64,000 nt of DNA from Schmidtea polychroa (Eukaryota): the NCBI GenBank assembly GCA_044892525.1, contig CM097885.1:8558001-8622000 (forward strand). The letters run 5' to 3'. The notes below the pieces were generated by a model. It was given only the letters and a program-made list of their open reading frames with translations. It was not told where the DNA came from and ran no database searches. Below are positions 17,142 through 44,876 of this stretch, piece after piece; position 1 is the stretch's first letter, and each line of letters begins with the position of its first letter. The position numbers and the translations under genes are program-made.

Positions 17142-17323
17142 TGTTTGCGGTGTGCTTCTCTTTATGAACTTGGGAAATGGGGGGGGGGGCGTCGGGGGGC
17201 TCCTATATCTATAGCACGCCATGGCGTGCTTATTAATAAACCATGGTTTATTATGAGATATAGGGGCCCCCGACGCCCCCCCCCATTTCCCAAGTTCATA
17301 AAGAGAAGCACACTGCAAACACA
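17140..17323. repeat. Left terminal Y-shaped hairpin
   Basis: A ~70-bp stem (TGTGTTTGC..CCTATATCT / AGATATAGG..GCAAACACA) encloses two palindromic arms, AGCACGCCATGGCGTGCT and TAATAAACCATGGTTTATTA. Confidence 0.95.
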
Positions 17324-17741
17324 TGACTGCGTGGGAGTTTATAAAACATATATAGTAAAGTACAGGCAGATGCGTTTTCCAAGAATGGCATAGTAATAAA
17401 TGCCTTTACTTTACTATAATATTTTTAATGATGAGTCATAAAACAATGACTGCGTGGGAGTTTATAAAACATATATAGTAAAGTACAGGCAGATGCGTTT
17501 TCCAAGAATGGCATAGTAATAAATGCCTATACTTTACTATAATATTTTTAATGATGAGTCATAAAACACATTAATCAATAATATATAAACACACTAACTC
17601 GTTTATCTATCATTTACAAATGAATAAGAGTTTATAAAACATATATAGTAAAGTACAGGCAGATGCGTTTTCCAAGAATGGCATAGTAATAAATGCCTTT
17701 ACTTTACTATAATATTTTTAATGATGAGTCATAAAACACAA
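17323..17741. repeat. Three copies of a ~120-bp sub-hairpin ITR unit (single inverted copy at ~22855-22978)
   Basis: Near-identical units, each with an 18-bp inverted repeat, a GGCAT-N8-ATGCC stem-loop and ATGAGTCAT. Confidence 0.93.
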
Positions 17742-17765
17742 AACTAAAATTTATTAAATAACAAA

Positions 17766-20642: not shown

Positions 20643-20644
20643 AA

Positions 20645-21944
20645 AATTTTTATAAGCGATCTCATAAACAACGATTATCCCGCGTACATAAAGTCTATAG
20701 CGACAGTGAAGAGCGGGGAAGCAGTGTATCTTCCGTATTGTCTGGCACATCTGTGTCCGATCTGCGAACTCCTACAAAGACTAGTTCGGTATCTAAAATC
20801 AAGCGATCTTCTAAGCACGTTTCCCGTAAACATAAGGCAAGGAGACACAATGATTCTGAGCATTGTGATATACCAGCTGTCAAAGCTGTTGATCAGTTGG
20901 TTTCAGATAATAAAACTCAAAATAATCATCAGGAACGATCAAGAAGATTTAACTCCTTCAAGTTCCAAGTATCTGTTACAAAATATCGATCTCTGGAGCC
21001 GGAACTTAAAAAACTCATGGAGGACAAGTCCTTTACAAGATTCGTTATCGGTCAAGAAGAGGAAGGTGATAATGGATATCACCATATGTAAATGTATTGG
21101 GAGGTATTATTATATTTATTCAATTTAGCTATTAATGGAATAAATATGATAATTACAGATTTACAACAACATGTCTATATATGCCTTTAGGGCAAAAACG
21201 GATATTCCCTTTGTCAGAGGAGTCCCAGGAATCGAACGGCAGTCCGCTATCGACTATGCAACAAAATCTGAGACAAGAGTTGCAGGAGGATTATCTGTAA
21301 ATATTGGGACTCAAAGTAAATACAATTGTGCATCTAATATAGATTATTTCAAACAAGCACTGAATTCTGCCTCGATGAAAGATGGATTAAATATTCTTAT
21401 GCAACACGAAGCTTTTCACTACACAACAAAGAGAAAAACCATAATGGAAACTTTCGTAAATAAATTCGGTCAATCAACTATGCCAAATTTTAATGACAAT
21501 TTTCTAATTGATAAAATAAATTTATTGGATTGGAGAAGCCACGTGTTTGTAGGAGAATTTGGCATAGGTAAAACCAATTTCGCCTTATCACATTTTAAGA
21601 ATCCGGTGCATTGTAAACACCTTCAAATGCTTAACAGAATTTCGGATAATGTTGATAAATGCGACGGAGTAGTGTTCGATGATCTTTATTTCAACAAAAC
21701 TCGAATAGAAGAATTTCTTTCGTTGGTAGATTGTGCATACGAGAATGTCATAAATATCAAATATTCGGTAGCTGTAGTTCCAAAGGGATTGTCCAGAATA
21801 TTTTGTATAAACGATTTGGACTTATTCTATCCAGAATGTATTTCACCAACAATAATGGAAGCTATACATAGAAGAATTAAAATTCATCATTTCCGAGGCA
21901 GAATTTTTAAAGAATACAAATCTGAACAAGTAAAATTTTTATAG
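20645..21944 (+). pseudogene. CRESS-DNA-virus-type Rep (HUH endonuclease + SF3 helicase), intron 21104-21158, one TAA at 21089
   Basis: Motif I-like FKFQV, then VIGQEE..GYHHM*MYWE (motif II HxQ if TAA was CAA), motif III IDYATKSETR, Walker A GEFGIGKT, Walker B VVFDD, motif C IFCIN and Arg finger AIHRRI. A 55-nt phase-0 GT-AG intron joins the frames. No in-frame ATG found; the frame is open from 20645. Confidence 0.85.
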
Positions 21945-22135
21945 TATTATTTATTAAATTAATATTAGACAATGAAACACCCGTATCAGATACAGAACCA
22001 ATGTCCCAGCCAAAATGTCGATTCCTCAGTATCCAGTGCAAATCCTGTATGAAATTCATGCGTATTTACTTGGGAGTGTGCAATAATAGTTTTTAGTGTT
22101 TAGTATATAATAATAAATGTTTTAAATAATAAATG

Positions 22136-22804
22136 TTAAAAGAAATTCTTTATTTTATCAAAAATATCATACTTAACATCATTCAATACATTTATATCTT
22201 CAAATACATTTATATGAGTATTAAATTCGTATGGTTTTTCTACAACGATATATAGAGAACGATTTTTAAGAGCTTGTTCATGCTCAGAGGCATATTTCCA
22301 TATAGGATGATTATTGGATATTATACAAGGGCAATTACTTAGTTCAATTTTTGAATCACCTTTACGAAAAACTTTTAGAAAAATATTACCTTCACATAAT
22401 AACTTTAATAAATTAACATTTTTGAAATCGCAATATATTTCTTCACCAATGATAATCTCTTTTCCGACACAGTCATCGAAACAAAATTCACTTTGAGTTT
22501 GTGCACCAGTAAAGAATCCATGTTTAAGTGTCCCACGACAAATTGCAGTAAATAATGTTTTCCCACCGTTACTTACTCCTTCTAATATAATGGTCTTGGT
22601 CTTTCCGGCTTGAGATGATAAGATTGTATATATCCCAAGAAGACGACGAATATATTTTTCATTTTCTTTAGGGATAATATGACGATTCTCAGAAATAATT
22701 TGATTAATTTGTCTATTGTGATCGCTGTTAAAATGGAAATTGTTGTTATTAATAAAAGCTTCCATAAAAGTTGATAATTCATTGTATAGTAATAGCTTAT
22801 TCAT
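22136..22804 (-). CDS. Stand-alone parvoviral NS1-type SF3 helicase (222 aa, no endonuclease domain)
   Basis: GKTKTIILEGVSNGGKT, EFCFDDCVGKEIIIGEE (cf. NFPFNDCVDKMVIWWEE), LKLLCEG..VFRKG and PCIISNN. Intact ORF with TATATAAA ~35 nt upstream of the ATG, next to the right ITR. Confidence 0.9.
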   Translation of the reverse strand: MNKLLLYNELSTFMEAFINNNNFHFNSDHNRQINQIISENRHIIPKENEKYIRRLLGIYTILSSQAGKTKTIILEGVSNGGKTLFTAICRGTLKHGFFTGAQTQSEFCFDDCVGKEIIIGEEIYCDFKNVNLLKLLCEGNIFLKVFRKGDSKIELSNCPCIISNNHPIWKYASEHEQALKNRSLYIVVEKPYEFNTHINVFEDINVLNDVKYDIFDKIKNFF

Positions 22805-22977
22805 TTGTAAATGATAGATAAACGAGTTAGTGTGTTTATATATTATTGATTAATGTGTTTTATGACTCATCATTAAAAATATTATAGTAAAGTAAAGGCA
22901 TTTATTACTATGCCATTCTTGGAAAACGCATCTGCCTGTACTTTACTATATATGTTTTATAAACTCCCACGCAGTCA

Positions 22978-23148
22978 TGTGTTTGCAGTGTGCTTCTCTT
23001 TATGAACTTGGGAAATGGGGGGGGGGGCGTCGGGGGGCCCCTATATCTCATAATAAACCATGGTTTATTAATAAGCACGCCATGGCGTGCTATAGATATA
23101 GGGGCCCCCCGACGCCCCCCCATTTCCCAAGTTCATAAAGAGAAGCAC
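22978..23148. repeat. Right terminal Y-shaped hairpin (inverted copy of the left, outer end truncated by about a dozen nt)
   Basis: Reverse complement of 17140-17323 with only a few substitutions and G/C-run length differences. Confidence 0.95.
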
Positions 23149-24811
23149 TCAGGAGATTTGGGTAGAAACTAATTGCGTAACTTTATTAGATTATATGATG
23201 ATCTACTTGAAACTTGATTGTTTTCTTTTGGCTGATTTCTTTCATCAGTTTCGGTTGAAATCTATTGCTCACAATAGATTGGAACCATTGAATTATTTCG
23301 GAATTCCAGGTATGTCTTGGTCTTCTGCATTAATGTCTTTAAATGAACCAATTGAGCTCATAACTGAAAACGAAATGTTTAGCTTTTATGAGGGTCGAAT
23401 AAGAGGCGGTCTTACTTTTGTGAATAAGCATTACGTAAAAACCAATGAGAACACCGAGTTACTTTATATAGATATTAATAATCTTTATGGTTGGGCTTTA
23501 AGTCAATCATTACCTTGTGGCGAATTTAGTTGGGTTCTTGATGGATTTGATTTAATAATGGATGAATGTAGGAATTTAAATCTTGAATCTTTGTCTTATG
23601 GATACACTCTTGAAGTTGATCTTGTAATTCCTTCTGAGCTTCATGATAAGTTGAATGATTTCCCTGTAGCTGCTGAAAAAATGAAACCTGCTGGGTCTAA
23701 GGTTGAAAAATTATTATTAACTCATCTTCCAAAATCTAATTATGTGATTCATTGGAGATTATTAAAATTATATTTGGAACTTGGTGTTAAAGTAACACGT
23801 GTAAATAGGGGTGTAAGATTTAAGCAATCTCCAATTTTTAAAAAATATATAGATACAAATACAGAATTAAGGTCAAAAAGCATAAATAACTTAGATAAAA
23901 ATTATTATAAATTGTTAAATAACAGTTTATACGGCAAAACAGTTGAAAATTTAAAGAGAAGAATGAATCTTCGTCTTTGTACAACTGCCGGTAAATTAGT
24001 TAAATATTCTTCAAAGCCGACTTTTAAAAAATCTATTAAAATAGACGATAATTTAATCGCGGCATTATTGAATTCAGATTCTATATGTTTAGATAGACCA
24101 AGTTACATTGGTCAATCTGTACTTGATCTATCTAAACTTAGAATGTATGAATTGCAATATAAGGATCTGGAATCATTTCGCAATGAGTTTAATTGTAAAA
24201 TTAATATCGTTGCAGGTGATACAGATTCTTTTTTCCTCGAAGTCATTAACTGTAAACTTGAGGTTCTTTTACCTGCAATGATTCGAGATAATTTATTAGA
24301 TACTTCCAATTACAATAGTTGTCATTCCTTATATAGTAAGAACCTTGATTCTGTCATTGGAAAGTTCAAAGACGAGAATAAAGGTCTTAAATAAAAGGAA
24401 TGGGTTTTTCTTAGACCTAAATGTTATAGCTTGTTGGGTGATGAGGAAACAAGAAAGGCTAAAGGTGTAACATTGAAAGGTAGTGACATAAAACATCAGT
24501 CATACCTGGATTGTTATAACACTAACCAGATTTTTTCGATTCCTCAAACAAAAATAGCAAGCAAAAATCATCAAATTTTTACAATTAAAAACACTAAAAT
24601 AGCACTAACTAACAAAGATGACAAAAGGGTTTGGGTGGGGAAAAATACTAGTTTAGCATATGGGCATGTAAGATTAAGTTATTTAAATGTTGGAGAAATT
24701 GTTGGAGATGAATTTGATGAAGAAGATGTTGGAGAAGATATTGAAGAAGTTGTTGGAGAAGCTGATATTAATGACATTATTTTATCTGATAAAAATTGTT
24801 TTATTAAATAA
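23148..24811 (+). pseudogene. pPolB 3' part (plus arm), nonsense at 24392
   Basis: Resumes the pPolB sequence right after the virus. Motifs YIDINNLYG, KLLNNSLYGK, AGDTDS and DDKR..AYGH. Confidence 0.92.
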
Positions 24812-25950: not shown

Positions 25951-26519
25951 ATGTCTTCAAACGATCCACAGGTTTGATGTTATAATTATTTAGTAATTTA
26001 ATTATTTTAAATAAGGTACAAGAATTGTCTATTGATTGGGATCATTCTTTTTTAATAATAGATAAATTTCTAACAATAAATGATGAAGATTATATATTCC
26101 TGGCCAAAATAAATAAATCTTTCAAACATTAAGTAATTCAAAATCTATTTGATAAGTTCGACTTCAATATGTCGATGTTGAAATTAACCAGCTGTATATT
26201 ATCTATAAATAATATTAACCATACAGAAATTAACACGCTTAAGGTTTTCTGGATATGTATGGATTTCAGGTTCCGAAAATATCGCGAGCTTATTGAAATC
26301 TTCCTTCTTAATGCATATAAACTTGGTATTACAATACATAATTTACTGAATGAAGTCAGAAAACAGTTTATTACATGTTGTATATGTCGAATTCGAGAAG
26401 TTTCTATTCTATATCTGCCTTGTGGCCATATCATTATTTGTTCCTTATGTTTGAAAAACTGTAGTAGATGTCAGAGTTGTGGTGTCATAATCGATGAATC
26501 TCATTCAGTGTATTTTTGA
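25951..26519 (+). pseudogene. Protein with a C-terminal IAP-type RING finger; intron 25972-26015; in-frame TAA at 26130
   Basis: CCICRIREVSILYLPCGHIIICSLC..CQSC..VYF-stop matches the IAP/MDM2-like terminal RING pattern. TATA at ~25897. No BIR domain recognised. Confidence 0.7.
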
Positions 26520-26542
26520 AATAAATGTTGTAAAACTCCTAC

Positions 26543-26654
<112 letters not shown>

Positions 26655-26673
26655 CATTATTATTATTATTATA

Positions 26674-26729
<56 letters not shown>

Positions 26730-26922
26730 ATTTCAACTTTCTATCACAAATCATGGTTAACTAAAAACATAGTCGATTATTATAAAATTTATAACACAAA
26801 AGTTATACCATAAAAAGTTGACAAACAAAAATAACTAAATATTTACAAATTTTTATTCAACATCGTATTTACACAAATATATATATAATCACAATGTTAA
26901 ATAATTGGCCCAAATTATAACT

Positions 26923-27190
26923 TTAAATTATTGAGTTGAATATTTGATTGAATTGTTGATCTCGAATGACAGGATCCGTTTCAGGAATAACGATATTACC
27001 ACTACCATCTAAGACATCGACCCCTCTATAATGTTCATATGCAAAACTTGAGTTTTTCCCTACCCAAGCTCTCTTATCGTCGTGATTATTTAAAGCTATT
27101 TTTGAGTTTTTAAAAGTAAACAGCTGATGATTCCGGGTTCCTATTCTAGTTTGAGGAACCGACATGTCTGTGTTGTTGTTATAGCAGTCA
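26923..27190 (-). pseudogene. pPolB C-terminal fragment fused to truncated major capsid
   Basis: DCYNN..VPQTRIGTRNHQLFTFKN.KIAL..DDKR.WVG aligns with the C-terminus of ORF 34106..35989. Confidence 0.88.
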
Positions 27191-27739
27191 GACCTTTTCA
27201 GTCTAATATGTACACTAACTCCCGGAAGTAAATATTTCGGTTGATCCATAAAATCGAGTTGTAATGATGAGCACATGGTGAAAACCTTTGAGACTTTAAC
27301 CCACATTTTTTCTTTCATCATCTGCTGCTGCATAACTCATAGGAGTAAGACATGTATTTTTAGTATCGGAATTGTAATTTAAAATAGTTTTTATTAATGC
27401 CTTGTGAATGAATGTATTATTTCCACTCTCAATCTTGATATTATTAAATCCCAACACTGCATCTTTAAACAGAGTATGAAACAGGAAATTGTTCGGTATT
27501 ACATCTGCATTGGCATCCAAAACTTTTCTATCTTTATCTACAACCTTGATCTGAACAGTCAATAAAGTATCGTTCAAATCTAAATATTCAGTTTGCGAAC
27601 CAGTAATATAAAACTCTTTATCATTTCTACTATCGGTAATTGAATTCATAAGAAAAACTTCCTCAAAAGCCCCAAATTCTATTACAGCCTGGGGCGATGG
27701 TCTATCAAATATACATAATTCAGATTTACCACAAATCAT
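27191..27739 (-). pseudogene. Polinton major capsid protein (double jelly-roll), N-terminal part
   Basis: KSELCIF..P.Q, EFYI.G..YLDLNDT.L, HTLF, IKTILNY..DTK, and after a frameshift DQPKYLLPGVSVHIRLKRS; all typical of Maverick major capsid. Confidence 0.85.
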
Positions 27740-28104
27740 TTTGAAATATTAGTTCCATGTCCTTTCATTCGTTTGTTTATACGTGATATTCCATGTCTTT
27801 TACGTTTTGGAGCTGGGGCTGGGGATGGAGGCGTATCTTTTTGAAACATACCTGCAACCCCGGGTAGAACCTTCCCTAACTCAGCTAAAGCATTTGTTTT
27901 TAGGGATTGTAATATTTTCTGTTCATTCATAATCACGTCTTTAGTAGTTTTCATGCCAAAACTACCAATACGTTTAAGAATAGGAAGTGCAAATCTCCCT
28001 ATTGTTTTTAACCAACCTGATCCGTACTGTTTACCAACGAAGTATGGTAATTCACCGCCAGATTGGCTATCACTATACATACTAATAATATCGGAATTAG
28101 CCAT
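27736..28104 (-). CDS. Conserved small Polinton virion protein (QSGG site, amphipathic helix, basic tail)
   Basis: QSGGELPYFVG.QYGSGW..IGRFALPILK, lying between the minor and major capsid genes with overlapping start/stop codons. Confidence 0.7.
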   Translation of the reverse strand: MANSDIISMYSDSQSGGELPYFVGKQYGSGWLKTIGRFALPILKRIGSFGMKTTKDVIMNEQKILQSLKTNALAELGKVLPGVAGMFQKDTPPSPAPAPKRKRHGISRINKRMKGHGTNISK

Positions 28105-29113
28105 CTACTTTACGAAAATGTAATGTCAAATGAGTTTTTGAACCTTTTGGAAAGTTTATAAGTTTTCCACTATCATCACGAATATTTATTTCTATATTGT
28201 TTATACATGAACTTGCTATTGGTAAATACATGGGATTATCGATATTTATATTGAAAACTTCATCATGTTCATATCTACCAATCCATACCGATTTCAAAAA
28301 AGGAACACTGGAATCACCAACAGTTATGGGTTCGATAATGTTAGTATATATGAACATTTGTTGATGATGTTCTAGTATTATTGGTTTGCGTATACCAGTC
28401 GATTTTTCTCGATATTTTTGCCTATCTAATCCAAGTGAATTTGCCAAATTTTTATCAAATGTAACTTCGCAAATATCATCATTCAAACTGAAGGTAAACA
28501 TTAAATCTTTCACAATTTCCAAATTTTTAAATATGTGTGAACAATTGAACTTTAAATATTTAAGTAAATCATCAAGTTTATCAAAATATAATTCATCAGC
28601 AAAGGTAAATGATTCTTCAACTTCATTATTATACGACACAGATATTTTGATTTCTTCTTTCACTATACTGTTTGCTTCAAATAGATTAAAACGTAATAAA
28701 TACTCGGTCTCCGTAACAATATTTTTCAACTTATTGCAACCCATTCGTTTGGCATCTTCAATAGTTTCGAATGTTATTGCAAATGGTTTAAAATCACAAC
28801 TGATATTTAATCCATCCTTGTAAAACATATAGCAATGAGAATCTAATATTTGATTCGGAATATGATATGTTTTATCATAATTACTGATAACAAAGATACC
28901 GCTACATGTTTTCACAATATTCCTTTTGAAATCAATCTTACATTGACTCTAAAATGGGAATGTGTTGTACACGAATGTAAAATCTTGCAGTGCAACTTCC
29001 CAGTCCCCATTTAAAGAAATCGGATTCTGGAGGTTGACCATGAATTTGCTGGCTTGATTATCTGGATGAATTAATGGACAACTATTGCTCGGCAAAATAG
29101 TATAAAAATTCAC
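28097..29113 (-). pseudogene. Polinton minor capsid (penton) protein, one in-frame stop at 28949
   Basis: N-terminal FYTILPSNS..PDN..F..L..PISLNGDWEVAL and C-terminal IYTNIIEPITVGD..P..PMYLP..IEINIRD..G..LTLHFR. The two ORFs are in the same frame. Confidence 0.85.
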
Positions 29114-29739
29114 TTTATTAGGTCTTTTGCTGATATCCATGACGGGTTTTGATAACCATGCCATTTGACATAGTATTGTTTATCCTTGCCGACCTTTTTA
29201 GTTAACAATATATTTTTTGAATTCTAAATACTTTTGGGGGAGGAATGACTTGTAATTCCTGCTCATAAAATTTCCCTTGTACAATATTATTATCATTATC
29301 TTTGATGACATACATTACAGGATTCTGTTTAGTATTTATTTTTGAAATTACAAAGACTTCATCACTCCAATTTGTATCAAAATTTTTAATAAATGGTGAT
29401 GCACTAATTTTACTAATTCTAACATGGTAACCGACTTTATATTTAGGTTTTGCAATTTTTACAGATTTTTTAGAAGTCAATGATGTTTTTGATGTAATAT
29501 CAACCGGTCTCAATCCATTCAGTCCTCGATGTGATGAATGATTATAACTTGTTAATATTTTCGGTAAAACATTTACCCATTTTTTATTACCTTGATGCAC
29601 GAACAATTTCTTTAATCTATCTCTCAATGTTCGATTTAATCTTTCAACATGGGCAGCTTTTATTGAGAATGTACCGAGTAGTGATTTATTTTCAGTTTAT
29701 CGAGGATTTGCTTAACTTTGCTATTGTAGAACTCTTTAC
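29110..29739 (-). pseudogene. Retroviral-like (rve) integrase 3' exon with C-terminal chromodomain, frameshifted
   Basis: After the acceptor TTTTAG (29740): GKEFYN..KAAHVERLNRTLR..YNHS.H..KYKVG..VRISK..NWSDEVF..GKFYEQELQ, then YYVKWHGY..SWI. Confidence 0.88.
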
Positions 29740-30316
29740 CTAAAATAATAATAAGTAATAAATTTAATAAATCAATATGTGTTTGTCCGAATACAGCCAA
29801 GTTGATGGATATTTTATATATTCTCGACAAACCAAAATGGTCAAAGCATCCAGGAAAAGGAATATCTCAAAGATTGGAGAATTTAGAAAACAGCTATGAA
29901 CTATCATTTGTATATATACAAAATATAAAAATTAAATTGATTGATCATATTGAAGTTTTCAATAACTCTATTATTGAAAATAAAAAGAATATGAAAATTA
30001 TTGATAAGAAGCATGATTATTTGTTAAAATAGATTGAATTATTATTAAGCGAAATTCAAGCAATCAAAGGATCAATAGAATATCTGAAAAGCAATTCAAC
30101 ATTACCAATTTCAAACAATATTGCTGCAAATACTAGTACATCAATATTTAGTTTACCTTTGTTAATTTTAAATTATTTAATTGTTTAAATAAATGTATGT
30201 TTTTGTTGATTTGTTGATTTGCGAGTTGTTGAATGTGAGCAGTACCCATAGGGGGACAAAATATTTTGTCGGATCGACTAGGAGTATATATAATAATAAT
30301 AATAATATACTTTGAA

Positions 30317-30381
<65 letters not shown>

Positions 30382-30600
30382 TAATAATAAAAATAATAAT
30401 AATAATAATACTTATAATAATAATATTTTTACTTTATTAAAACAAATTAAGAAAACATTTGCGCACACGGATTCCCCTTTGAATTACCTTTAAAATGACC
30501 CCTTGATCAATAAAATCCAAGCAAAGGTACTCTCAAAATATTAATTTTAAGAAAATACGCACACGCAATCTTTAATTAAATTATATAGCCGCCATCTTGA

Positions 30601-30870
30601 AAAATATGACCTTGACCTTTGAAAGTATGACCATGATACTTTCATCTCAAACACTTTTATAATAATGTCTGAAAAATTCGAAGGTTTTTACCCTTTGAAG
30701 GTTATTGACCAACCATTCACCTTCGAGGGTATGACCATTAGATAGACCTCTCAAATACCTTTCGAATGATACCCTTTGGTGAAGGTTTGACTTTAAAAAT
30801 ATGACCTTGACCTTAAAAAATATGACCTTGACCTTAAATATATGACCTTGGCCCTAAAAATATGCCCTTG
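30601..30870. repeat. Cluster of AAAATATGACCTTGACCTT repeats
   Basis: At least five variants, tandem with ~20-bp period at 30795-30870. Confidence 0.75.
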
Positions 30871-31629
30871 GTGAGTTGTGTTAAAGAATTTCTATTCTTA
30901 GAAAGATTCTCCATATTATAAGAAAAAATTTTCAAGATTACTAACTTCATAGTCGAAAATATTTTGCAAAAGACTGAAACTTTGACTTTTCGAATATTTG
31001 TTCATAAATGATTTTTTGCTATAATGAATTTTTCGAATCTGATATTGAAATTGACAATTTTGACAAATAAAATTTTTTGCTGATTCATTAAATACAATTT
31101 TTATGTCCTTTTCGACTTAAAAAATGCAATTTATTTATTATTCTTAGATTTGTATTGTTTAAATATTCATCATATATTAAATTCTATGTGAAATCTTTTA
31201 AATAAAGATGAAGAAATAAAATTATATTTAAATGTAATCAATAATAAATAACAATTTTTGTATATGAAATAATTGATATAATATTAATAAAATCATAGCT
31301 AAACTAGACCCTTCTAAAAGACAGATTAAACCTGTTGATAAAGATGCATTTCAATTATTTGATGATATAGAATCATGATCAGATGAAGATTTTGTTTTTG
31401 GATCTGATGATTTTTCTGATGGTAAAATACTTATTATTGGTTTATCCAATTGGTATTATTGGACGTATTGGTGGACCAAGAAATTAAAGAAAGTGAAGAC
31501 GAGGAAGAAAACGACAATTCTACCACAGAATTAAATAACTAAGATGGAACTTCTGATACAAATATATCTAGTAAAATTGAAGAAAATATGAAGAAAAGAG
31601 AAAGTGAAATGAAGGGTAGTAAGGGATGT

Positions 31630-31956
31630 ATGAAAGCGAATGGGGTCACATTGAAAGATACTGAACTTACTCATCGGTCGTATCTGAATTGTTATAATAA
31701 TAATGAGATTTATACGGTACTCCAATTTAGAATAACAAGTAAAAACAATCAAATTTTTAGTATTAAAAATAATAAGAGGCCTAATGTTGATGATAAGCGC
31801 AATTGGGTATTTAAAAATAAAAGTTATGTGTATGGTCATATTATAGGGGATGGTATGGTTATAGCTGATGATTCTGGTGAAGAAATGTTGCTACCTATAG
31901 TTGATCGAGATGAAGATTTGTTATATCATCCTCATTTTCCGGTTGTCAATTATTAA
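31630..31956 (+). pseudogene. Further, diverged pPolB C-terminal fragment
   Basis: KANGVTLK..HRSYLNCYNN..SKNNQIFSIKN..DDKRNWV..YGH aligns with the other pPolB tails. Confidence 0.8.
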
Positions 31957-32617
31957 AATTTATGATATAACAAATTTGTTTTTACTCTATTTTTAAACGT
32001 TACAAAATTTTTATTTCGTTAGTGTTACTTGTGATAGTACACTATTTTTAATATCACTAATTATTTTAGTACACATTTTTGCAATACATCTGCAACACAT
32101 CTGAAAACTATGAATGACTCACATACAAAGGTCAATTATTCACACACGCAATATACATGCAGTAATTTGATTAGTTATACACAAGTATAAAATAGAAGTG
32201 AATTGGCATGATAGTCTTTATTTTTAAAATGCAATCCTAGAAGAACGCTTTTGGTGAGAAAACATTTTCTAATTTATTGAAAAAAACAAGTCCAATTAAG
32301 AACATAACTGAGACGAAGCCTGTCAAGAATGATGTGAAACCAGTACAAATGTATCATAACCATAAGATATATTTCTTGGTAGATGAAATTCCATATAAAT
32401 TCTCAAATACAGTCAAATTTATCAAGAAGCAAAATATTCAAATTTCATAGCTCATATAACAAAAGAAGATGTTGCTGTAAATATAGTGTTGGGGAAAATC
32501 AATAAGAATCAATAAGTTGCAATAGAAATAAATCCCCAACAATCGAAATTCCCGTTTTAATAATTTTAATTTGCACTTTCTAATTAAAAACTATTTTCAA
32601 TTAAATTTCTCAACAAT

Positions 32618-33142
32618 AGTAGGTGGTTTGGGCACCGGGAAAACAGGACTCCGGGAGCACAGTACCCCCCCCCCCCCCCCGGGGGAAAAAATTAAAAAAA
32701 ATTTTTTTTTCAAGGTCAACTTGAGAACAAAGACAATGAGTCATCCGATGACTCATCACTCGTCTAGAACAAAGACAATGACTCATCCGATGACTCATAA
32801 AAAATTATTATTATTTTTCAAAAATATTATTATCTGTGCTCGCGGAGTTCTACTTTTCGTCAGCCCAAAACTTAGTCTAAATCTCAAAATATTTTAACAA
32901 TTTATAGTTCATTTTGAAGACCAGACGAAGACAAATCTTTTGAGCCATATAAATAATTTTTATCATTAGTAGTATAAAAGTTATTAATTTTTTAGTCAGA
33001 CACTAATTTATAGCAAATTTATAGCAAATTTTATGAAGAAATTTGCGGGTGATTTATCATTCACCCAATCAGGTAAGACTTTAATTTTATGAAGAAATTT
33101 GCGGGTGATTTATCATTCACCCAATCAGGTAAGACTTAAATG

Positions 33143-33143
<1 letters not shown>
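32618..33143 (+). repeat. Left TIR of element C (~525 bp plus (TTA)n)
   Basis: Inverted copy of 41358-41884 with about 6 substitutions counted by eye. Contains a C-run, four ATGA(G/C)TCAT sites and a ~56-bp tandem duplication. Confidence 0.95.
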
Positions 33144-33189
<46 letters not shown>

Positions 33190-33214
33190 AAAGTTTTAAC
33201 AAGTTTTAACAAAG

Positions 33215-33304
<90 letters not shown>

Positions 33305-34105
33305 CTGTTGTTATTGACTTTGAGAATAACTGACAATATACAAAGAAATTAAAAAAATAAGAATAAATTAAAAAGTAATAATTAGAATAATATAGAAAAA
33401 AATTTTAAAAAATAGGGTTTGAAAATCAAAATTGACACATTTATTGAAATATTTAAATAGCATATATAAGTAGTTATTGGAGGCTTTATTTAAAATATTT
33501 TCAAATATTTTATTAGGCTTCTAGAAGCTAATTATAGAAGCTGTAAAAAATTTAAAAATTTTAGTTTGTGTCATTTTGAAATTTTAAATGTAAAAATTAT
33601 AAAAAAATTTTAAAAGTTTTTAGTAAAACAATTCATTATATTTACAACCAATGAGAATTAAGAGAAAGGAAATAAAAGAAAGATTGAAGGGTATTTTGAA
33701 GAAGAACATTGCTAAATTCCAGGAGATTGACAAGGACTATCGTATAGTCGAAAATTCTTTCATTAAATACATTATTTGCAGCAAAAGGCTTAAATTATCA
33801 TTTTATTGTTATTATTATTATAAGAGAGATGTAGTTGCATGCTGACTGCAAACTACTGTTACAAATTATTTTCTCGTATACCAAATATAAAAATGAAAAC
33901 ATTACAAGTTTTCAAAAATAATAATTTTTACCAATAATATCATTTTATGCTGAAACATTTTCGATAAATTTATATGAAAATATAATGTTTAAACATAGAA
34001 AGAATTGTGAAAACTATAACGAGTTTTCAATAAAATATATACATTATAAAAGAATACAAATCAATAAAAACATTTTTTTTTTAAAAGATATATTAATATA
34101 TCACA

Positions 34106-36142
<2,037 letters not shown>

Positions 36143-36527
36143 CTAAATCTGTTTGCAAGTTATTAGGATGTCCATCTTTAAATAAAATATTAATTGCCTT
36201 GGACATTTCTTCTGCAGATTTTGCCTTGACTGGTATTGCTCGTGCAAACCTGCTGTATACATTAATACATGTTAAAATATATTTATTCCCATTGTTAATT
36301 TTCGAATAAGGTATCATCATCAAATCCATTTGCCATAAATCGTCAATACCAAATGTTTTATACGCTCTTGTTGGAAATCTTTTCCGCATTGGTTTGTTCA
36401 AACTGTACGCAAGCTGATCTGATAACCACTTCTGGGTTTCTTTTTTCGAATTCGGAACTCTTTTCTTTAATTTTGCCACTCCACCGAAACCGGCTTCGTC
36501 TTCTGGGTTCTTCCAAATCTTCTCCAT
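36143..36527 (-). pseudogene. rve integrase 5' exon (rest deleted)
   Basis: AGFGG..KL..WL..Q.AYSL.KP.RKRF, DLWQMDL, KYILTCI..SR.A.A.P.K.K and LQTDLG, followed directly by donor GT and (ATT)n. Confidence 0.88.
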
Positions 36528-36585
36528 TACAACAAGAAGATTTAAAATTAAATTTAATGTCGGGCAATGAAGGATTAGCACCCAT
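36358..36585 (-). CDS. Small ORF overlapping the integrase start, with an N-myristoylation signal
   Basis: MGANPS (Gly2, Ser6), SSCC, then a basic stretch. ATG lies 3 nt after the upstream stop. Confidence 0.45.
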   Translation of the reverse strand: MGANPSLPDIKFNFKSSCCNGEDLEEPRRRSRFRWSGKIKEKSSEFEKRNPEVVIRSACVQFEQTNAEKISNKSV

Positions 36586-36588
36586 TGT

Positions 36589-36855
36589 TTATGACTGTGT
36601 AACTCCACCTAATAATGATAATGCCAGAGGTATCAATGCACCAATAAATCCACCTTGTTGTTTATATATAATTTTCCTCATTTGCTTACGATTTTTATTA
36701 TTTACTAATGATAACAAAGGTTTCCTATGTTTGCTCAATAAATGCTTTTTTGATTTACTGATTTTAATTTTGCCTTTGACTACTTTAAGTATAATATTGA
36801 GTAAATCATCGACAACAAAATTTGGGAATGATTGCAATATATTCATTCTTTTCAT
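36589..36855 (-). CDS. Small basic Polinton protein with QQGG site and hydrophobic C-terminal helix
   Basis: KQQGGFIGALIPLALSLLGG. Its start overlaps the upstream stop. Confidence 0.7.
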   Translation of the reverse strand: MKRMNILQSFPNFVVDDLLNIILKVVKGKIKISKSKKHLLSKHRKPLLSLVNNKNRKQMRKIIYKQQGGFIGALIPLALSLLGGVTQS

Positions 36856-37124
36856 ACTCGGGCCTTTAACAATGCATTAAAAAATGGAAAACTGCGATGA
36901 TTTTTAACTACTTTTTTACCGGTTTTACGGGTTTTACGGGTTTGACGTTTAGGTTTAGGATTTTTCGAAATAAGATTCATTGCAGAGAAATTTTCAGTTA
37001 CAAGTTTTTTAGATGGTGTATAACTAGTTGTTGGTGGAACTTTTGGAACTTTTGGAACTTTAATACTCTTTCTAATACTTTTTCTTAATTTCCTAATATT
37101 TTTCACCCTTGCTTTTAGAAACAT
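36852..37124 (-). CDS. Lys/Arg-rich small protein (putative DNA-condensing core protein)
   Basis: Very basic 90-aa ORF tightly packed between the ATPase and the QQGG gene. Function inferred from composition only. Confidence 0.55.
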   Translation of the reverse strand: MFLKARVKNIRKLRKSIRKSIKVPKVPKVPPTTSYTPSKKLVTENFSAMNLISKNPKPKRQTRKTRKTGKKVVKNHRSFPFFNALLKARV

Positions 37125-37142
37125 TATTATTCATAGAGGTTT

Positions 37143-37769
37143 TCAACTTTGTTTATAAACCATGGCACCTTTTGGGTTGAAAATATCTGTTTTTACTCGT
37201 AAATCATCGGGACATTGTTGCGTGAAATCAAGAAATATATATCCATGAGGTATTTTTGTAGCATCTTGAAATGCACTGATAAGAAAATTACGATTGTTAG
37301 GGTATGCTTGATGTGCAAGAAAATCAATCACTGTTGCATCTCTAGGATTCTTGAAAATAACTAAATATTGTACATTTAAATTACGTGTTCGATGTGCCCC
37401 ACCTTGATGAAATAGATTTTGTGTTATGAAAATAACTGTTACACCGACATGTCTGCTGATCTTTGTAAATAAATTATTAAAATCTTTTTCTTTATTAGCT
37501 TCTTGATACAGATCATCAATAATAATGACATCACCTTTCTTTAATCGGCTGGACCAGTTTTTATCGAATCCCTTTACTATTTTCATGTTTTTTATTTCAC
37601 AGAAACTTGATTGAGTTAATCCATGTTCTTCATCAGCACCCCTATGCCAATAAATCCTGTTGAATTTTGATTTGAATAAATTTGATTTTAGTAATTTACA
37701 AACAAATAATGTTTTTCCACTACCACTCGGACCAACGATTTGGTATACTGCATCATTTCTTAATTCCAT
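37143..37769 (-). CDS. A32/FtsK-like genome packaging ATPase
   Basis: Walker A GPSGSGKT, Walker B IIIDDL, SRH, ITQN, YLVIFKNPRD and HGYIFLD. Confidence 0.93.
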   Translation of the reverse strand: MELRNDAVYQIVGPSGSGKTLFVCKLLKSNLFKSKFNRIYWHRGADEEHGLTQSSFCEIKNMKIVKGFDKNWSSRLKKGDVIIIDDLYQEANKEKDFNNLFTKISRHVGVTVIFITQNLFHQGGAHRTRNLNVQYLVIFKNPRDATVIDFLAHQAYPNNRNFLISAFQDATKIPHGYIFLDFTQQCPDDLRVKTDIFNPKGAMVYKQS

Positions 37770-37868
37770 TTCAAAAATTTTATAAATGTGTATTTGTTTA
37801 TATTCAATGATTTAATGAACTCGTGCTCAATTTGTATATAAAGAATAATTTTCATAAATGATTTAATA

Positions 37869-38306
37869 ATGTTAGCAAATATAAATTATCGAGGAAATTT
37901 TGATGTATCGAATATGAGGTTCCCACCAGGGAAACCCCAGCAAATTATCGATAGAAGCGGGAAATATCCGATAATATTTTTCAAGACTGGTAAATGTAGA
38001 ATCATGGGATGTAAGAAACCTTTGGATATTAATAAATTACAATATCGAATAAATAATATTATAATCCAATCAATTACCGTTACTATGGATATGGGACATA
38101 GTATCAATTTATATAACATGTCGAAAAAATGTGATTGTATGTTTGAACCGGAATTGTTTCCGGCACTAAGACTATTAAAATATAACCCTATATGTGTCAA
38201 CGTGTTTGCTAGTGGAAAGGTTGTCATGCTGGGGTTGAGAAATTTGGAGTATAGAGAATTTGTTGACAATGTTCGAAATGAGATAATTTCATTGGTCGAT
38301 TTCTAA
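37869..38306 (+). CDS. TATA-binding-protein-like protein encoded by the Polinton
   Basis: Two TBP repeats: IIFFKTGKCRIMG, and IQSITVT...INL...FEPELFPAL..NP..VNVFASGKVVMLG (cf. YEPELFPGL..IFVSGKVVLTG). Confidence 0.88.
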   Translation: MLANINYRGNFDVSNMRFPPGKPQQIIDRSGKYPIIFFKTGKCRIMGCKKPLDINKLQYRINNIIIQSITVTMDMGHSINLYNMSKKCDCMFEPELFPALRLLKYNPICVNVFASGKVVMLGLRNLEYREFVDNVRNEIISLVDF

Positions 38307-38380
38307 TTGGTTAATTTCTAATTGGTTATTGATTGATTTAAACAAACGGTTTTTTGTTTAGGATTCATTTATTCAACACT

Positions 38381-38795
38381 ATGTACAAATTACCAAGCGC
38401 AGCAAACCTCATGAAAGATATCGACGATTATGGTAAATTTAAAATTTTTATTTTGACATTTTTTTTTTATTATTTTAGAAAAATATTTAGAAGTTATGCT
38501 CAATAGGATAAAATATTATTATCCTCAAATTGCGGAAATAATCAAGGACAGAGATCCAGAAATCGTTCCAGATTTGATTTTTTATTCAACCCAAATTAGA
38601 ATCATGGAGGTATTCCATCAATTCTTATGGGATATTAAGATCAACAGAACCATGAAGCAAATGGAGCCAGAGTACCAGTGCATCATCGGATGTTCATGTT
38701 GTGCCGATCGATATCGGCGATATGTCGAATGGGAGTTCGTGAAAACTCTGAGAAGGTTTCACTACTCCCGGATTGTTGATTTAGGATATGAATAA
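38381..38795 (+). CDS. Hypothetical protein, intron 38433-38478, Cys cluster CIIGCSCC
   Basis: An ATG exon of 52 nt splices in frame through a 46-nt GT-AG intron into ORF 38496..38795. AATAAA overlaps the stop. Confidence 0.6.
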
Positions 38796-39106
38796 ATGTA
38801 TTTAATGTTTCAATTGTGTTTTTTTTTTTTTATATTTAAAATAGTAATAATTATAATAATAATAATAGAAATAGTAATAATAATAATAGAAATAGTAATA
38901 ATAATAATAATAATAATAGAAATAATAGTAATAGTAATAATATAAATAGTAATAATAATAATAATAAAACATTAATAGAACATAAATGCAACATCAATGC
39001 ATTTTGAATGCAATTTAAACAAAGACATGCTATAATCTGATTGGTTGATAGGCATGAGTCAAAGGTATAAAAACCCTGTAACATTTAAATTTATTCATTA
39101 TTCACG

Positions 39107-39517
39107 ATGACCAAGAAAATTTCAAGCACCGAAAAACCTAAAGAAATGGTACAACCAGTTCAAATGTTCCACAACTACAAAATGTATTTTTTGAAAGAAG
39201 AAATCAATATGAAATTGGTTGCACCAGTCAAGCTAATTCCAACTAAATTTCAATTCTTATCCGGCACGCTTTCAATGATTGATGTCAAAACTATTGATGA
39301 TGTTTTTAAACGGATAGATTCGAATCTATCGTGTAATCAACATGCATGGTTCAACAATAGATATGTAAGATTTTATGATGCTTTCGATGAAATCAGTTTC
39401 AAAGAAAATGAAAATTGGTATATAACAATTGCAATCCAGGGATATAAAGTTGATAATAATGATGTATATTCTCCTATTTGGAAAATTATGTCTGCTAGAC
39501 TTTCACAAATATTTTAA
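39107..39517 (+). CDS. Hypothetical Polinton accessory protein (136 aa)
   Basis: ATG ORF with TATAAA ~40 nt upstream and AATAAA just downstream. No family recognised. Confidence 0.6.
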   Translation: MTKKISSTEKPKEMVQPVQMFHNYKMYFLKEEINMKLVAPVKLIPTKFQFLSGTLSMIDVKTIDDVFKRIDSNLSCNQHAWFNNRYVRFYDAFDEISFKENENWYITIAIQGYKVDNNDVYSPIWKIMSARLSQIF

Positions 39518-39644
39518 TGTTATATTTAATAAATGTATTAGTCAGATTTGTTTTTTCTCTTTATTAATTGCAACATAAATGCAAATGACATGCAAATTTA
39601 ACAAAGAAAATCTATAAACAAACTTATAATATAGTTTTAAAGTG

Positions 39645-40021
39645 ATGAAAATGACTGCAGAAAAAGGTTAACATGATTAATTAATTACCGAATTATTTAT
39701 TATTTAGAATTTGTAATCAACTTTTTGTTGGAAAAGTTAGCAGAAATAGCTGGTGTGAAAATTGAGGACATATTATCTGTTACAAATGCATTAAATATCG
39801 GCTGGGTAGTTGAGAGTCAAGATACAGGATTTGATGATCAGGAAGAAGAAACTCAAGAAACTGATACTCAAGAAATTGATGAGGAAATATATGAACCTAT
39901 AGATGAACCTATAGAGGAACCTAAAGATGAACCTAAAGATAATATTACGAATGATTGTATTGATCATGTCGTTGAAAATATAATGAAATGCGGAGATGAC
40001 GACTGCGAATGTGTTAATTAA
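39645..40021 (+). CDS. Hypothetical acidic protein, intron 39667-39707
   Basis: A 22-nt ATG exon splices in frame (41-nt intron) into ORF 39725..40021. Confidence 0.55.
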
Positions 40022-40098
40022 TAAATCTTAGTTAGTTAGTGTTTGTAAATTTATTCAAAATTTTATTTAAAAACGAAACAAAATAACTATATTAATTT

Positions 40099-40613
40099 TT
40101 ATTTAAAAAATCGCGATAAAGCATACAAAATAGCAACACCTGTTGCAAGTTTTACATAGTTTTTAAATTTTCTTTTCTGATGATCTATTTCCTTCGCATT
40201 TCTGGCGAGTTGATTCAGTACGCCCCATCTGCCATTGGCTTCAATCCATGGTTGAAACTTTGACTTGATTATCTAGAAAATATATATTAATAAAATATAG
40301 ATTATAAAAGTATTACTTCTTGAGACCACTGATAATAATGTTCAGAGTCCCATAAACTTCTTTCGATTATGATCTTCATATAAGCAAACCCTACTAGTAT
40401 TCGGGTCCACTTCATCTCATCATCGCATAGACAGTTAAAAATCCTATGAAAATAGAATTTTTTCGTTTCGAGGCAATCGCTATTGAGCATATCTTCATAA
40501 TCAATATGATTTCCTTCTATAATCTTTTCGGTCCGATCGACCAGGAAACTGAGGCTTTCCATAATCTTCTTGTTGATAAGTTCGCTTAAAAGATTTTCCA
40601 TAAAATGAGACAT
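40099..40613 (-). CDS. Bcl-2-family protein (156 aa), exons 40613-40317 and 40272-40099
   Basis: BH1-like LCDDEMKWTRILVGFAY. After a 44-nt phase-0 intron come BH2-like FQPWIEANGRWG and a C-terminal TM anchor LATGVAILYALSRFFK. Confidence 0.82.
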
Positions 40614-40739
40614 TTCTACAATAATTTAAAATATGATGTTTTATTTATACTAATACCGTATGATTTTGATTGGTTGATAGACTATAAATGTAAAAGAAAG
40701 GTTTTGATTTGATACACCATGAAATCTATATTCATATTG

Positions 40740-41357
<618 letters not shown>

Positions 41358-41884
41358 CATTTAAGTCTTACCTGATTGGGTGAATGATAAATCACCCGCA
41401 AATTTCTTCATAAAATTAAAGTCTTACCTGATTGGGTGAATGATAAATCACCCGCAAATTTCTTCATAAAATTTGCTATAAATTTGCTATAAATTAGTGT
41501 CTGACTAAAAAATTAATAACTTTTATACTACTAATGATAAAAATTATTTATATGGCTCAAAAGATTTGTCTTCGTCTGGTCTTCAAAATGAACTATAAAT
41601 TGTTAAAATATTTTGAGATTTAGACTAAGTTTTGGGCTGACGAAAAGTAGGACTCCGCGAGCACAGTTAATAATATTTTTGAAAAATAATAATAATTTTG
41701 TATGAGTCATCGGATGAGTCATTGTCTTTGTTCTAGACGAGTGATGAGTCATCGGATGACTCATTGTCTTTGTTCTCAAGTTGACCTTGAATAAAAATTT
41801 TTTTTTAATTTTTTCCGCCCGGGGGGGGGGGGGGGGGTACTGTGCTCCCGGAGTCCTGTTTTCTCGGTGCCCAAACCACCTACT
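41358..41884 (-). repeat. Right TIR of element C
   Basis: Reverse complement of 32618-33143. Confidence 0.95.
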
Positions 41885-42827
41885 AACAATAATTTTGTTA
41901 TTTTCAAATTTCGATTTAAATAATTTTTGAAAAATATTTAATTATTTTTCAAGAATTTTGAAAAGAAAATTACAAATAAATAAGAAATACACTGAAAAAT
42001 TACCAATAATCAAATATCAATTTTATCTACATCAAAAAACATTTTAAATATTGAATTTTTAAAAGTAAGAAGAAATAATTATTATTTATAATTATGATGA
42101 AAAATTTGAAATATTTTATTAATTTCATAATGAAATATTTAATTGATTTATTTTCATAATTATTGGTTAGAAACTTATTTGAATAAGACAAAATATTTGC
42201 TTTTTTAACATTTTCACAGATATTAATATTTTATTGATTTATTTATTTTACTACAAATTTTCATTATCCCGATTGACTTATTTTAATTATTTCTTAAAAT
42301 TCTTGATACAAGATTTAGATTAAATCTTCTGAGTGAATTATATTCTAATATTTGGATCAGTGAAATATCCTTATCCAATTGTGGATCATTCCCAATATTT
42401 ATAACCATAACGAGATCATTAGATCAAATGCCAAAACCCCACAATTTCTGAATACATTAGCGTTACCCAATAAAATTTCATTCAAATATTAAACAATTAT
42501 TCTTTAAAAAATGAATGAAATTTTTTTGTTTATTTTGTTAAAAAGTATTTGAAATAACAATATTGATTTAATTTGAATTTCCGTTTAAAAATGTTATTTA
42601 AATTTCCATCAAAATTTTACTTTTTGTTATCAAATTTTAATTTAAAATATTTTGTAAGATTTAAAATAAATAAAAAAAATAAATAGTAACATTAATTTCG
42701 AATTTCGCTCAAAGCTAAAATACAATATTTATATATTGTTTGTTTATCTACATTAAAATACAAATTATAAATATTGAAATTGTAAAAGTCAGAAGTAATA
42801 ATTAATATAATAAGTATGATTGATGAA

Positions 42828-43570
42828 TTGAGAATAGAGATGGAGACAAATATTGGATCAACCAATCAAGTTTGATTATTTATTTGATTTATTATTGATT
42901 TGTTATTGATGCGAAGCAGATCAGACAGCAAGTTGATGAGATGAAAAAGAAATGCGAGCAGCGTCTGCAACAGGAGAATGAATCTCCAAAGGAAATAATT
43001 AATATAATAAGTATGATTTATGAAAGTTGTAAAATGTTGAAAATTTTGTTAATTTTAGATAGCTCTGATGGCTCTGATGTCTCTGATGGCCCTGATGGCT
43101 CTGATATAAAATGTATAAATGACGGACATTTTGAATGGGAAATCGATGAATTTTCAAAACAAGAGAGAGAGATAAAACAATTTACAGCGAGGAATTTTAT
43201 TCCGGGCCAAATGGTTACAAAATGTGCTTGAGGTATTTATTACTGATATTTATGATTATTCGGGTTCGGTTAGAGTTGCGTTCATGTTTATGCGTGGGGA
43301 AAATGATGAGCAATTGGATTGGCCGTTCAAACAATGTGTGACAATCGATGTGATCAATCCAGCAAAGGGCAACATTTATATAAGCGACATTTATTTGAGT
43401 GAGTCATTAAAATATTCAGATTGCTCTGATGATTACGAATGGGGAAACCGTCAAATAGCAGAAATTATCCAATTTACATTTATAATGATTATTGTCAAGA
43501 TGAATCAATCTATGAAAAAGCAGAGGAAAATGATGAATTGCTGCTCAGGTGCAGAATTGAAAAATTATGA
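42828..43570 (+). pseudogene. Degenerate TRAF paralog (coiled-coil exons + frameshifted MATH; RING/zinc-finger exon deleted)
   Basis: FEWEIDEFS and FMRGENDEQLDWPFKQCVTIDVINPA. Upstream 41.9-42.8 kb parallels 5.1-6.06 kb. Confidence 0.85.
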
Positions 43571-44876
43571 AAAATTAAAAAAACATTTCAATAAAAAATT
43601 GATTTTTTTTGGTTTTTGATTTGTTTTATTATTTGCCTTGTGCTGGTTGATCAATATTTCTGGATCAGTTATTGATGCATTTGCCCAATTACAAACTGAT
43701 TGCAACATTATTGATGCTGTGGATCAGATGTAACCGCATTTAATGCTGATTGGATCAAATTGGATCATCAATTTAATGAGCATTGTGCAGATCCATTTAT
43801 TGATCTGCTTTGAATCAATTTTTATTGTTGCTCGTGATTTTGAATTGAAATATTTTGAAATTTTTAATTTTTATTTTCTTTCCAATAAGTGAAATTTTTG
43901 CATTTTAATTTCCCCTCAATTGTTACGCTGCTTTGTTTACAAATTGAGATTTCAATTGCTATTTTATATTTCTCAACCAATTTCCCTCAAATATCAATAA
44001 TATCGGAATTGCCGCCAGAAATCAATGAGAAAATCAATGAAAATTAGCATTATATTGATATGAAATTGAATTATTTATTGAGCAGCTGTCATTATGAGCA
44101 TGCAACACACATCATCAGGGAATCTCACAATTGCTGTCATTATCTGATCTATTATATCAATGCGGATCAGATATTATGGCAGCCATGTTAGATTTCTATC
44201 AGATCATTTATTTGAATTTATTATAGTAATATTGAAATTGAGCATTTCTTATAATTGAAGGTGAAAATGCATTTGATAGAATCCCTTGAAGGCCAGCCAA
44301 ATTATCATTATCATTACCGATAATTACAATTCCATATTTATAATAATGTTGCTAGGTTCAAGGCAGCAACCAAATTGACACCTTTAGGAGTTCCTTGAAA
44401 TCTTCATCACATTCCCAACAAACATTGAACATTTCAACATCAAAGCGTTCTGTAGAGTCTCAAAGTTTCTCATTTTCAAGGAGCTTATCAAATATTTGAA
44501 CGCTTTCATTTTAAATTTCTTTATGTTTGTCTGTTCAAATAATTTTTTTATTTAAACGTGTTTTTATGAAAAGAATTTTAGATAATTTTATATTAAAATG
44601 AAATCTCACAAAAGCAAAGCCGAAAGCTACTGCATAACTAAATCAGTAATGTATTAGTAGGAATATAAGACCAATCGCATATTTAGTTTTTAATATATTT
44701 TTTTTTCAATTATATTTTATTTTATATTAATATTTATTGATTTATATTTATTCAATTTCTTTAAAATTTTTAATTAATATTTTTTAACAAACTACGAAAT
44801 AAATACAATTTTGGCAACATTTATGTAGCAATAATAAAATATTTATTTTACACCATTTCCAAATTAGATGTGTTAT

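Follow-up and report, generated by a model that had tools for sequence, protein, structure and literature searches.

A reduced TBP gene in a Polinton of Schmidtea polychroa and a strand-oriented (T/C)ATAAAC box as its candidate late promoter

A Polinton in the genome of Schmidtea polychroa carries a gene for a small protein with the TBP fold, and most morphogenesis genes of its family are preceded by a non-canonical TATA-like box, (T/C)ATAAAC. The element lies in a stretch of 64,000 nucleotides (contig CM097885.1, positions 8,558,001 to 8,622,000), here called the window, whose own numbering is used throughout. The fold of the protein, its conservation, a remodelled DNA face, a retained TFIIB stirrup, and a box with a characteristic position and strand were observed directly. 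We consider it probable that this cut-down TBP is an early-expressed, element-specific factor that drives the late genes of the family from (T/C)ATAAAC via host TFIIB and RNA polymerase II. The wider reading, according to which a large branch of animal Polintons has a one-protein early-to-late switch with the smallest working TBP, devoid of host-regulator surfaces, a private (T/C)ATAAAC promoter and a direct contact to host TFIIB, could in our judgement equally well be right or wrong.

The element ends at 32618 and 41884, with an AACAAT target duplication flanking both ends, and its terminal inverted repeats (TIRs) have arms of 524 nt that are 99% identical (32665-33188 and 41312-41835). The TBP gene is located inside these repeats, as had been proposed from the sequence alone. 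TIRs with a 6-bp target duplication, together with the hallmark trio of pPolB, rve integrase and packaging ATPase, identify the element as a Polinton/Maverick (adintovirus), although pPolB and integrase are truncated in the window copy and longer in siblings. An adenain-type protease was found in a sibling (L025; Peptidase_C5, E 4.8e-6); its gene is missing from the window copy. The features of the window copy are as follows.

32618..33188, + strand: left terminal inverted repeat, preceded by the AACAAT target duplication
34106..35989, - strand: protein-primed PolB, 3' part, 627 aa (about 1400 aa in siblings); Pfam DNA_pol_B_2, E 2.2e-20
36018..36527, - strand: rve integrase, 5' part, which runs into an ATT repeat at the deletion junction; Pfam rve below cut-off (E 2.2e-6)
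36587..36593, - strand: CATAAAC box, 66 nt upstream of the integrase start
36852..37124, - strand: Lys/Arg-rich protein, putative core protein by composition; 177 aa in siblings, frame broken in the window
37143..37769, - strand: A32/FtsK-type packaging ATPase, 208 aa; Pfam Pox_A32, E 4.2e-7
37151..37157, - strand: TATAAAC box within the ATPase 3' end, 33 nt upstream of the basic-protein start
37796..37802, - strand: TATAAAC box, 33 nt upstream of the ATPase start; proposed late promoter
37835..37842, + strand: canonical TATA box TATATAAA, 34 nt upstream of the TBP start
37869..38306, + strand: TBP-fold gene, 145 aa; N-lobe without helices H1/H2, TFIIB stirrup E93-P-E95-L96 retained
38381..38795, + strand: small spliced gene 3' of TBP, with a 46-nt GT..AG intron near 38433-38478; joint in one contig of one sequencing run
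39107..39517, + strand: OB-fold protein (orf136), likely ssDNA-binding protein; CCAAT and canonical TATA upstream; model pLDDT 89
40302..40613, - strand: Bcl-2-like ORF (weak; Pfam Bcl-2, E 0.014, below cut-off); CCAAT and canonical TATA upstream
41312..41884, - strand: right terminal inverted repeat, followed by the AACAAT target duplication

The window copy is a deletion derivative of 9.3 kb without capsid genes. Missing from it are the genes for the putative penton, the pX-like protein, the putative major capsid protein and the protease, as well as the 5' portion of pPolB; its integrase is cut at the ATT repeat, after which the 3' part of pPolB follows. In nine of the ten siblings fetched, integrase and pPolB are separated by genes for the putative penton, the pX-like protein and the putative capsid, and the remaining sibling is a duplicate of the deleted window copy. 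The virion-gene block that the sequence-only reading had placed beside TBP is complete in siblings only. The 407-aa and 355-aa sibling ORFs were called capsid and penton from size and position alone, with no match among Pfam or PDB sequences. Positions 27459-42862 of the window recur at 99.75-100% identity at host C1:8.916-8.932 Mb, about 330 kb away; this second occurrence contains the same deleted element with its flanks and is a segmental duplication or an assembly duplicate.

As for the smaller genes, the Lys/Arg-rich protein gave no Pfam match, and the small spliced gene at 38381..38795 gave no credible family match in Pfam and atlas searches. Atlas searches with orf136 and orf99 returned no usable match. 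The model of the OB-fold protein (39107-39517) aligned with the SSBs of phage Enc34 (Z 6.9, rmsd 3.4, 103 aligned) and T7 (gp2.5; Z 6.6, rmsd 3.2, 104 aligned). It also resembles ASFV CP312R, the Z-scores across all three being 6.6-7.1. An SSB-like OB-fold gene adjoins TBP in 21 of 81 loci outside the host genome. The right arm contains, in addition, an acidic ORF (39643-40023), probably spliced, with a TATAAAC box about 30 nt upstream.

Further insertions are present in the window. At 26169-28828 lies a remnant in which a RING-finger ORF is accompanied by fragments of the putative capsid, pX-like and penton genes; a TATAAAC stands 42 nt upstream of the capsid fragment. A related element, which has a short peptide repeat, is represented at 10994-17073 and 23148-24609 by pPolB copies that are inverted and rearranged. 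The TIR-bounded element at 17276-23025 (5.7 kb) is a densovirus-like insertion: one of its ORFs is Parvo_NS1-like (22136-22804, E 8e-13), another is also Rep-like, and a third encodes 862 aa. Host TRAF-like genes (RING, MATH domain) were seen at 6082-7566 and 42941-43619. Elsewhere in the host genome, C1:23.85-24.19 Mb and C3:38.2-39.1 Mb hold at least 13 matches to a TFIIB-like gene of 301 aa that has no introns and encodes a zinc ribbon and a TFIIB repeat; these matches form an expanded host family. The host TBP genes comprise one canonical gene and at least five divergent paralogues.

The TBP ORF (37869-38306, + strand) encodes 145 aa and is free of stops and introns, exactly as first read. 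Pfam assigned residues 64-125 to TBP (E 6.8e-15; 55.1 bits against a cut-off of 22.9) as one stretch only, and phmmer matched 35 PDB sequences, all of them TBP or TBP fusions. The first TBP repeat went undetected by sequence searches (Pfam, phmmer and a further comparison). An AlphaFold2 model built from 93 relatives reached a pLDDT of 96. VIA-align superposed the protein over its full length of 145 residues on yeast TBP 66-240 (Z 13.3, rmsd 2.4 Å, with 6.6 for the next unrelated row), and Foldseek returned 44 matches at E<=0.001, those listed all being TBP chains (TMq 0.67-0.78). Both the Pfam score and the two-lobed saddle fold thus place the protein in PF00352. In the model, the first repeat retains its strands and has no helix before residue 81, confirming the claim that both repeats are present and the first one shortened. 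With the fold found in profile and structure searches alike, the objection that there might be no TBP fold falls. The ATPase starts at 37769 on the opposite strand, 100 nt from the TBP start, so the described head-to-head arrangement is correct.

To define the DNA face, we took the 17 DNA-facing positions of yeast TBP given in Table 1 of PMC12529657 and mapped them by alignment; the register at the start is backed by structural superposition. Over 93 sequences, mean conservation was 0.90 at these positions versus 0.64 at 43 other strand positions (p=3e-4), and 0.41 at 19 helix positions. Canonical cellular TBPs have four intercalating Phe residues, of which three are retained here (yeast numbering: F116 in 92/93, F190 in 93/93, F207 in 93/93), while F99 is replaced by Pro in 92/93. 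N69, L189 and P191 are retained as well. Among the 93 sequences, V71 is changed to Asn in 88, V122 to Arg in 92, T124 to Met in 93, N159 to Ser in 89, V161 to Thr in 87 and L205 to Asn in 93. Since the 17 DNA-facing positions average 0.90 in conservation, the DNA face, now polar, was changed and then held fixed.

The acidic C-lobe stirrup of canonical cellular TBPs is present (E93 in 90/93, E95 in 92/93); according to the accessible text of PMC7221094, these glutamates contact TFIIB in cellular TBP, and helix H2 is the shared site for TFIIA, Mot1, TAF1 and Brf1. This basic N-lobe helix, a further trait of canonical cellular TBPs, is absent: the model has no helix in residues 1-80, and the alignments show a gap. 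The same DNA-face changes occur in a distant clade, whose ATPase is 36-39% identical and whose N-lobe still has short helices. The proposed look at the intercalating Phe residues and the stirrup in a structure model therefore had a mixed outcome, with F99 lost and the remainder kept.

To survey promoter boxes, we searched the 90 nt upstream of each gene, both in the host genome and in loci outside it; a usable start was available for 24 of the 26 ATPase matches from outside. Counts per gene refer to distinct sequences after removal of near-duplicates, and 200 shuffle rounds served as control. ATAAAC was found upstream of 27/27 ATPases, or 23/23 distinct ones (shuffle mean 1.8, max 6). It precedes the putative capsid gene in 8/8 cases (shuffle 0.8) and, with start codons assigned approximately, the putative penton in 9/10 (1.0), the integrase in 10/15 (1.1) and the protease in 4/5 (0.4). 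The box is scarce before pX-like genes (2/7) and the SSB-like gene (2/10), and it precedes only 5/52 distinct TBP genes (shuffle 3.2). A canonical TATA, by contrast, stands before 30 of these 52 (shuffle mean 11.6, max 20). The background frequency of the box was 389 in 6272 windows.

The position and strand of the box are constrained. It lies 32-41 nt before the ATG in 17 of 23 ATPases that are 29-100% identical to each other. In eight morphogenesis blocks the hexamer occurs 91 times in sense versus 12 times in antisense orientation, ranking first of 4013 hexamers; with 7-14 sense sites per block, boxes outnumber genes, and many of them lie within upstream coding sequence. The box survives in 25 of 30 aged host copies picked by their ATPase. 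The base 5' of the hexamer is T in 25/35 sites of the near, helix-less clade and C in 16/22 sites of the distant clade, the two clades counting as one event. An A follows the hexamer in 41/54 sites. A role of the box as terminator was rejected: before the ATPase in the host genome, it sits in a divergent spacer.

Within the window, canonical TATA boxes were seen before TBP (-34), orf136 (-41) and the Bcl-2-like ORF (-36), the last two also with CCAAT, whereas both the ATPase and the basic protein have the non-canonical TATAAAC at -33. The statement that neighbouring genes have clear TATA boxes thus applies to the former group and not to the latter. A non-canonical TATA-like box before virion genes is a trait of herpesvirus-type late promoters, and the element family has it too.

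A second Polinton family of the host genome (PLA2-like gene and rve, DJR capsid, PolB of 937-959 aa) has the box before 0/11, 0/9 and 0/8 ORFs, with 9 sense and 13 antisense sites overall. No TBP match was found in the stretches of this family that were covered (best E 0.08), and its copies may be incompletely covered. It counts as one independent negative, and the evidence that gene and box occur together comes from one related group and this one negative family. About half of the ORFs in the second family start after T(A/T)nAAA-ATG, a context reminiscent of the poxvirus-type TAAATG late signal. In viral contigs, a search with the ATPase alignment found no TBP-less Polintons, and the TBP alignment gave one locus, without Polinton genes.

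Contigs of four sequencing runs, guessed to be RNA (none is recorded as such), covered the TBP ORF partly or wholly. A single GT..AG joint (38431-38478) appears in them, as do two poly(A)-like ends, one at 39544 and one at 40084, which lie 11 and 14 nt past AATAAA; one contig spans the divergent TBP-ATPase promoter. This suggests that the family is transcribed, the contigs being blind to strand, level, timing and copy. A single adapter-bearing contig end at 37779, 23 nt past the ATPase box, is too weak to serve as a start site.

We propose that ordinary TATA boxes would let host TBP drive early transcription of the SSB-like gene and of the element's own TBP gene. The element TBP is then predicted to bind (T/C)ATAAAC before the packaging and putative capsid genes, and may bring host TFIIB and RNA polymerase II to the genes for morphogenesis. 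Polar residues (yeast numbering first: V71->N6, V122->R44, L205->N111) could confer the new specificity, E93/E95 would hold TFIIB, and the loss of helix H2 might free the protein from Mot1, TAF1, TFIIA and Brf1. A C at box position 7 fits host TBP poorly, and TBP-DNA structures show the N-lobe in contact with the 3' half of the box. The N-lobe is the most altered lobe of the element TBP, and the 3' half of the box has C for A/T. TATAAAC reportedly forces a Hoogsteen pair on cellular TBP (cf. the PDB title 1qn3). KSHV ORF24, in which a polar TBP face acts on a variant box, supports this mechanism as a precedent. Against it stand the scarcity of the box before pX-like and SSB-like genes, the box before the acidic right-arm ORF of the window, the many boxes within upstream coding sequence, the weaker constraint on TBP than on the ATPase, and the loss of one of the four Phe residues, all of which are needed in KSHV ORF24 according to the accessible text of PMC12529657.

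A further point against it is that the host's at least five TBP paralogues and expanded TFIIB-like family could read the box. A host factor, either a TBP paralogue or a Forkhead protein, would then act on it, and the element TBP would have another role. This host has many intronless TFIIB-like genes, and the A that follows the hexamer in most sites yields ATAAACA, which fits the Forkhead consensus. However, the Forkhead variant GTAAAC is rare, with 3 of 23 ATPase upstreams and 17 sense versus 9 antisense sites in the blocks. Moreover, the box has a set orientation and distance, is common to elements from many unrelated samples, and is absent from the family of the same host without a TBP match. 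We regard a host reader as unlikely.

The sequence-only reading had left the choice between an element-specific transcription factor and a decoy for host TFIIB/TFIID. A decoy that dampens host transcription, by sequestering TFIIB or by occupying TATA boxes, would agree with the nearly invariant acidic stirrup, the deleted regulator-binding helices and the loss of F99. Nevertheless, a pure decoy leaves the conserved but altered DNA face and the oriented box unexplained, and we find it improbable. The element-specific factor is favoured because the DNA-facing positions are the most conserved ones and an oriented box precedes the morphogenesis genes. A decoy for TFIID in particular is unlikely in the window clade because helix H2 is deleted and, with it, the surface for TAF1 and TFIIA, as well as Brf1 and Mot1 (PMC7221094, accessible text).

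Alternatively, the protein could be a repressor or a DNA-bending architectural protein on the box, which keeps virion genes off or aids packaging. The surplus of boxes over genes in each block and the usual proximity of the TBP gene to the ATPase are in line with this idea, but the retained TFIIB stirrup and the -33 position fit initiation, and the orientation relative to the ATPase varies between genomes: head-to-head in the host genome, same strand in many outside loci. Such a role is quite improbable.

The evidence from copies again concerns the gene itself, which is real, conserved and under selection. Among the best 150 of 4164 first-look candidates in the genome, all scored, 150/150 matched at 99-100% identity and without stops. 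TBP stands beside the ATPase in 30/30 host loci picked by their ATPase, and its frame is intact in 24/30. dN/dS of TBP was 0.13-0.35 (28 pairs of 8 host copies from subfamilies that are 55-95% identical) and that of the ATPase 0.05-0.12, so that TBP is under weaker constraint than the ATPase. Outside the host genome, 108 of 116 candidates were relatives, and 38 of 81 outside loci have a Polinton hallmark gene on the same contig (25/35 among contigs >=3 kb). Subfamilies look mosaic relative to the window, with TBP at 91% and ATPase at 86% in one locus (L145) and TBP at 61% and ATPase at 95% in another (L193); these identities suggest that recombination may have occurred in the TBP-ATPase spacer.

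Identity to cellular TBPs is about 22-25%. In fast trees of 55 rows and 155 columns, with each host gene entered as a single exon, the 42 Polinton-type rows formed one long-branch clade (SH-aLRT 77) and the 8 cellular eukaryotic TBP rows were grouped (SH-aLRT 92); these trees separate Polinton-type from cellular TBPs, including the host TBP genes, and do not identify the donor. A captured host TBP retrocopy that decays or hitch-hikes, to which the intronless gene and the broken frame in 6 of 30 ATPase-picked copies might point, is already refuted by the low identity to cellular TBPs, by the separate clade, by the 99-100% identical matches, the dN/dS values and the 108 relatives elsewhere. The reservation that the gene might be a one-off decaying retrocopy has accordingly been removed by its conservation in siblings under purifying selection.

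If the element-specific factor is real, gene and box would form an orthogonal TBP-promoter pair in which box and protein change together (TATAAAC prevails in the helix-less clade and CATAAAC in the distant one). They would also be a natural experiment on TBP, concerning its dispensable surfaces and a changed minor-groove specificity. The box and the element-encoded TBP make the control of Polinton capsid genes and their early/late programme a testable question, including (T/C)ATAAAC versus TATAAAAG. The surprise is limited, as a viral TBP for late genes is already known from herpesviruses and large DNA viruses.

The claim that TBP lies outside the canonical Polinton set agrees with four Polinton papers in which the words TBP and TATA are absent (PMC11161782, PMC10748475, PMC8097293 and bioRxiv 10.64898/2026.06.19.733378), but not with Starrett 2021 (PMC8502044), where the Fig. 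5 legend has a 'TBP' label in MELD viruses with adintovirus-like PolB. Like the window element, these viruses have a TBP-like gene annotated in a Polinton-type genome. The likeness is by label only: the accessible main text has one mention, in the section on the non-animal dataset, without analysis, and one text supplement contains neither TBP nor TATA. The word 'polinton' is absent from the accessible text of PMC7221094. Literature searches, with most subscription papers and Repbase Reports outside their scope, found no description of the box or the mechanism.

With cellular TBP (PF00352; yeast 7o4i_O, human 5fur_A), the element TBP has in common the ten-strand saddle, three of four Phe, N69, P191, the EPELF stirrup and the C-lobe helices. 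It differs in the N-lobe helices H1 and H2, deleted in the window clade and kept, but shorter, in the distant clade, and in the substitutions F99P, V71N, V122R, T124M, N159S, V161T and L205N. Another parallel is KSHV ORF24, the viral TBP of beta/gammaherpesviruses, which reads TATT late promoters with a polar TBP face (PMC12529657, accessible text). The TBP fold, a polar DNA face and a non-canonical TATA-like box are shared with the element TBP, and so, by the proposed mechanism, are the late-gene role and the use of host Pol II. According to the same text, ORF24 itself has 752 aa, acts in a six-protein complex, retains the full set of four Phe and not the TFIIB glutamates, and binds Pol II directly. 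The element protein, in contrast, has 145 aa that are all TBP fold, with F99 absent, the glutamates kept and no Pol II-binding domain; no partner activator was found in the element, and none of the element ORFs scanned matched herpesvirus-type activator families. Like the element TBP, the TBP-like proteins of large DNA viruses (PMC7221094, accessible text; BFVD matches) no longer have the N-lobe surface for regulators. The scan of element ORFs revealed no gene of the TFIIB family. Large DNA viruses mostly supply their own TFIIB and have diverged stirrups according to the same part of PMC7221094, whereas the stirrup of the element TBP is retained.
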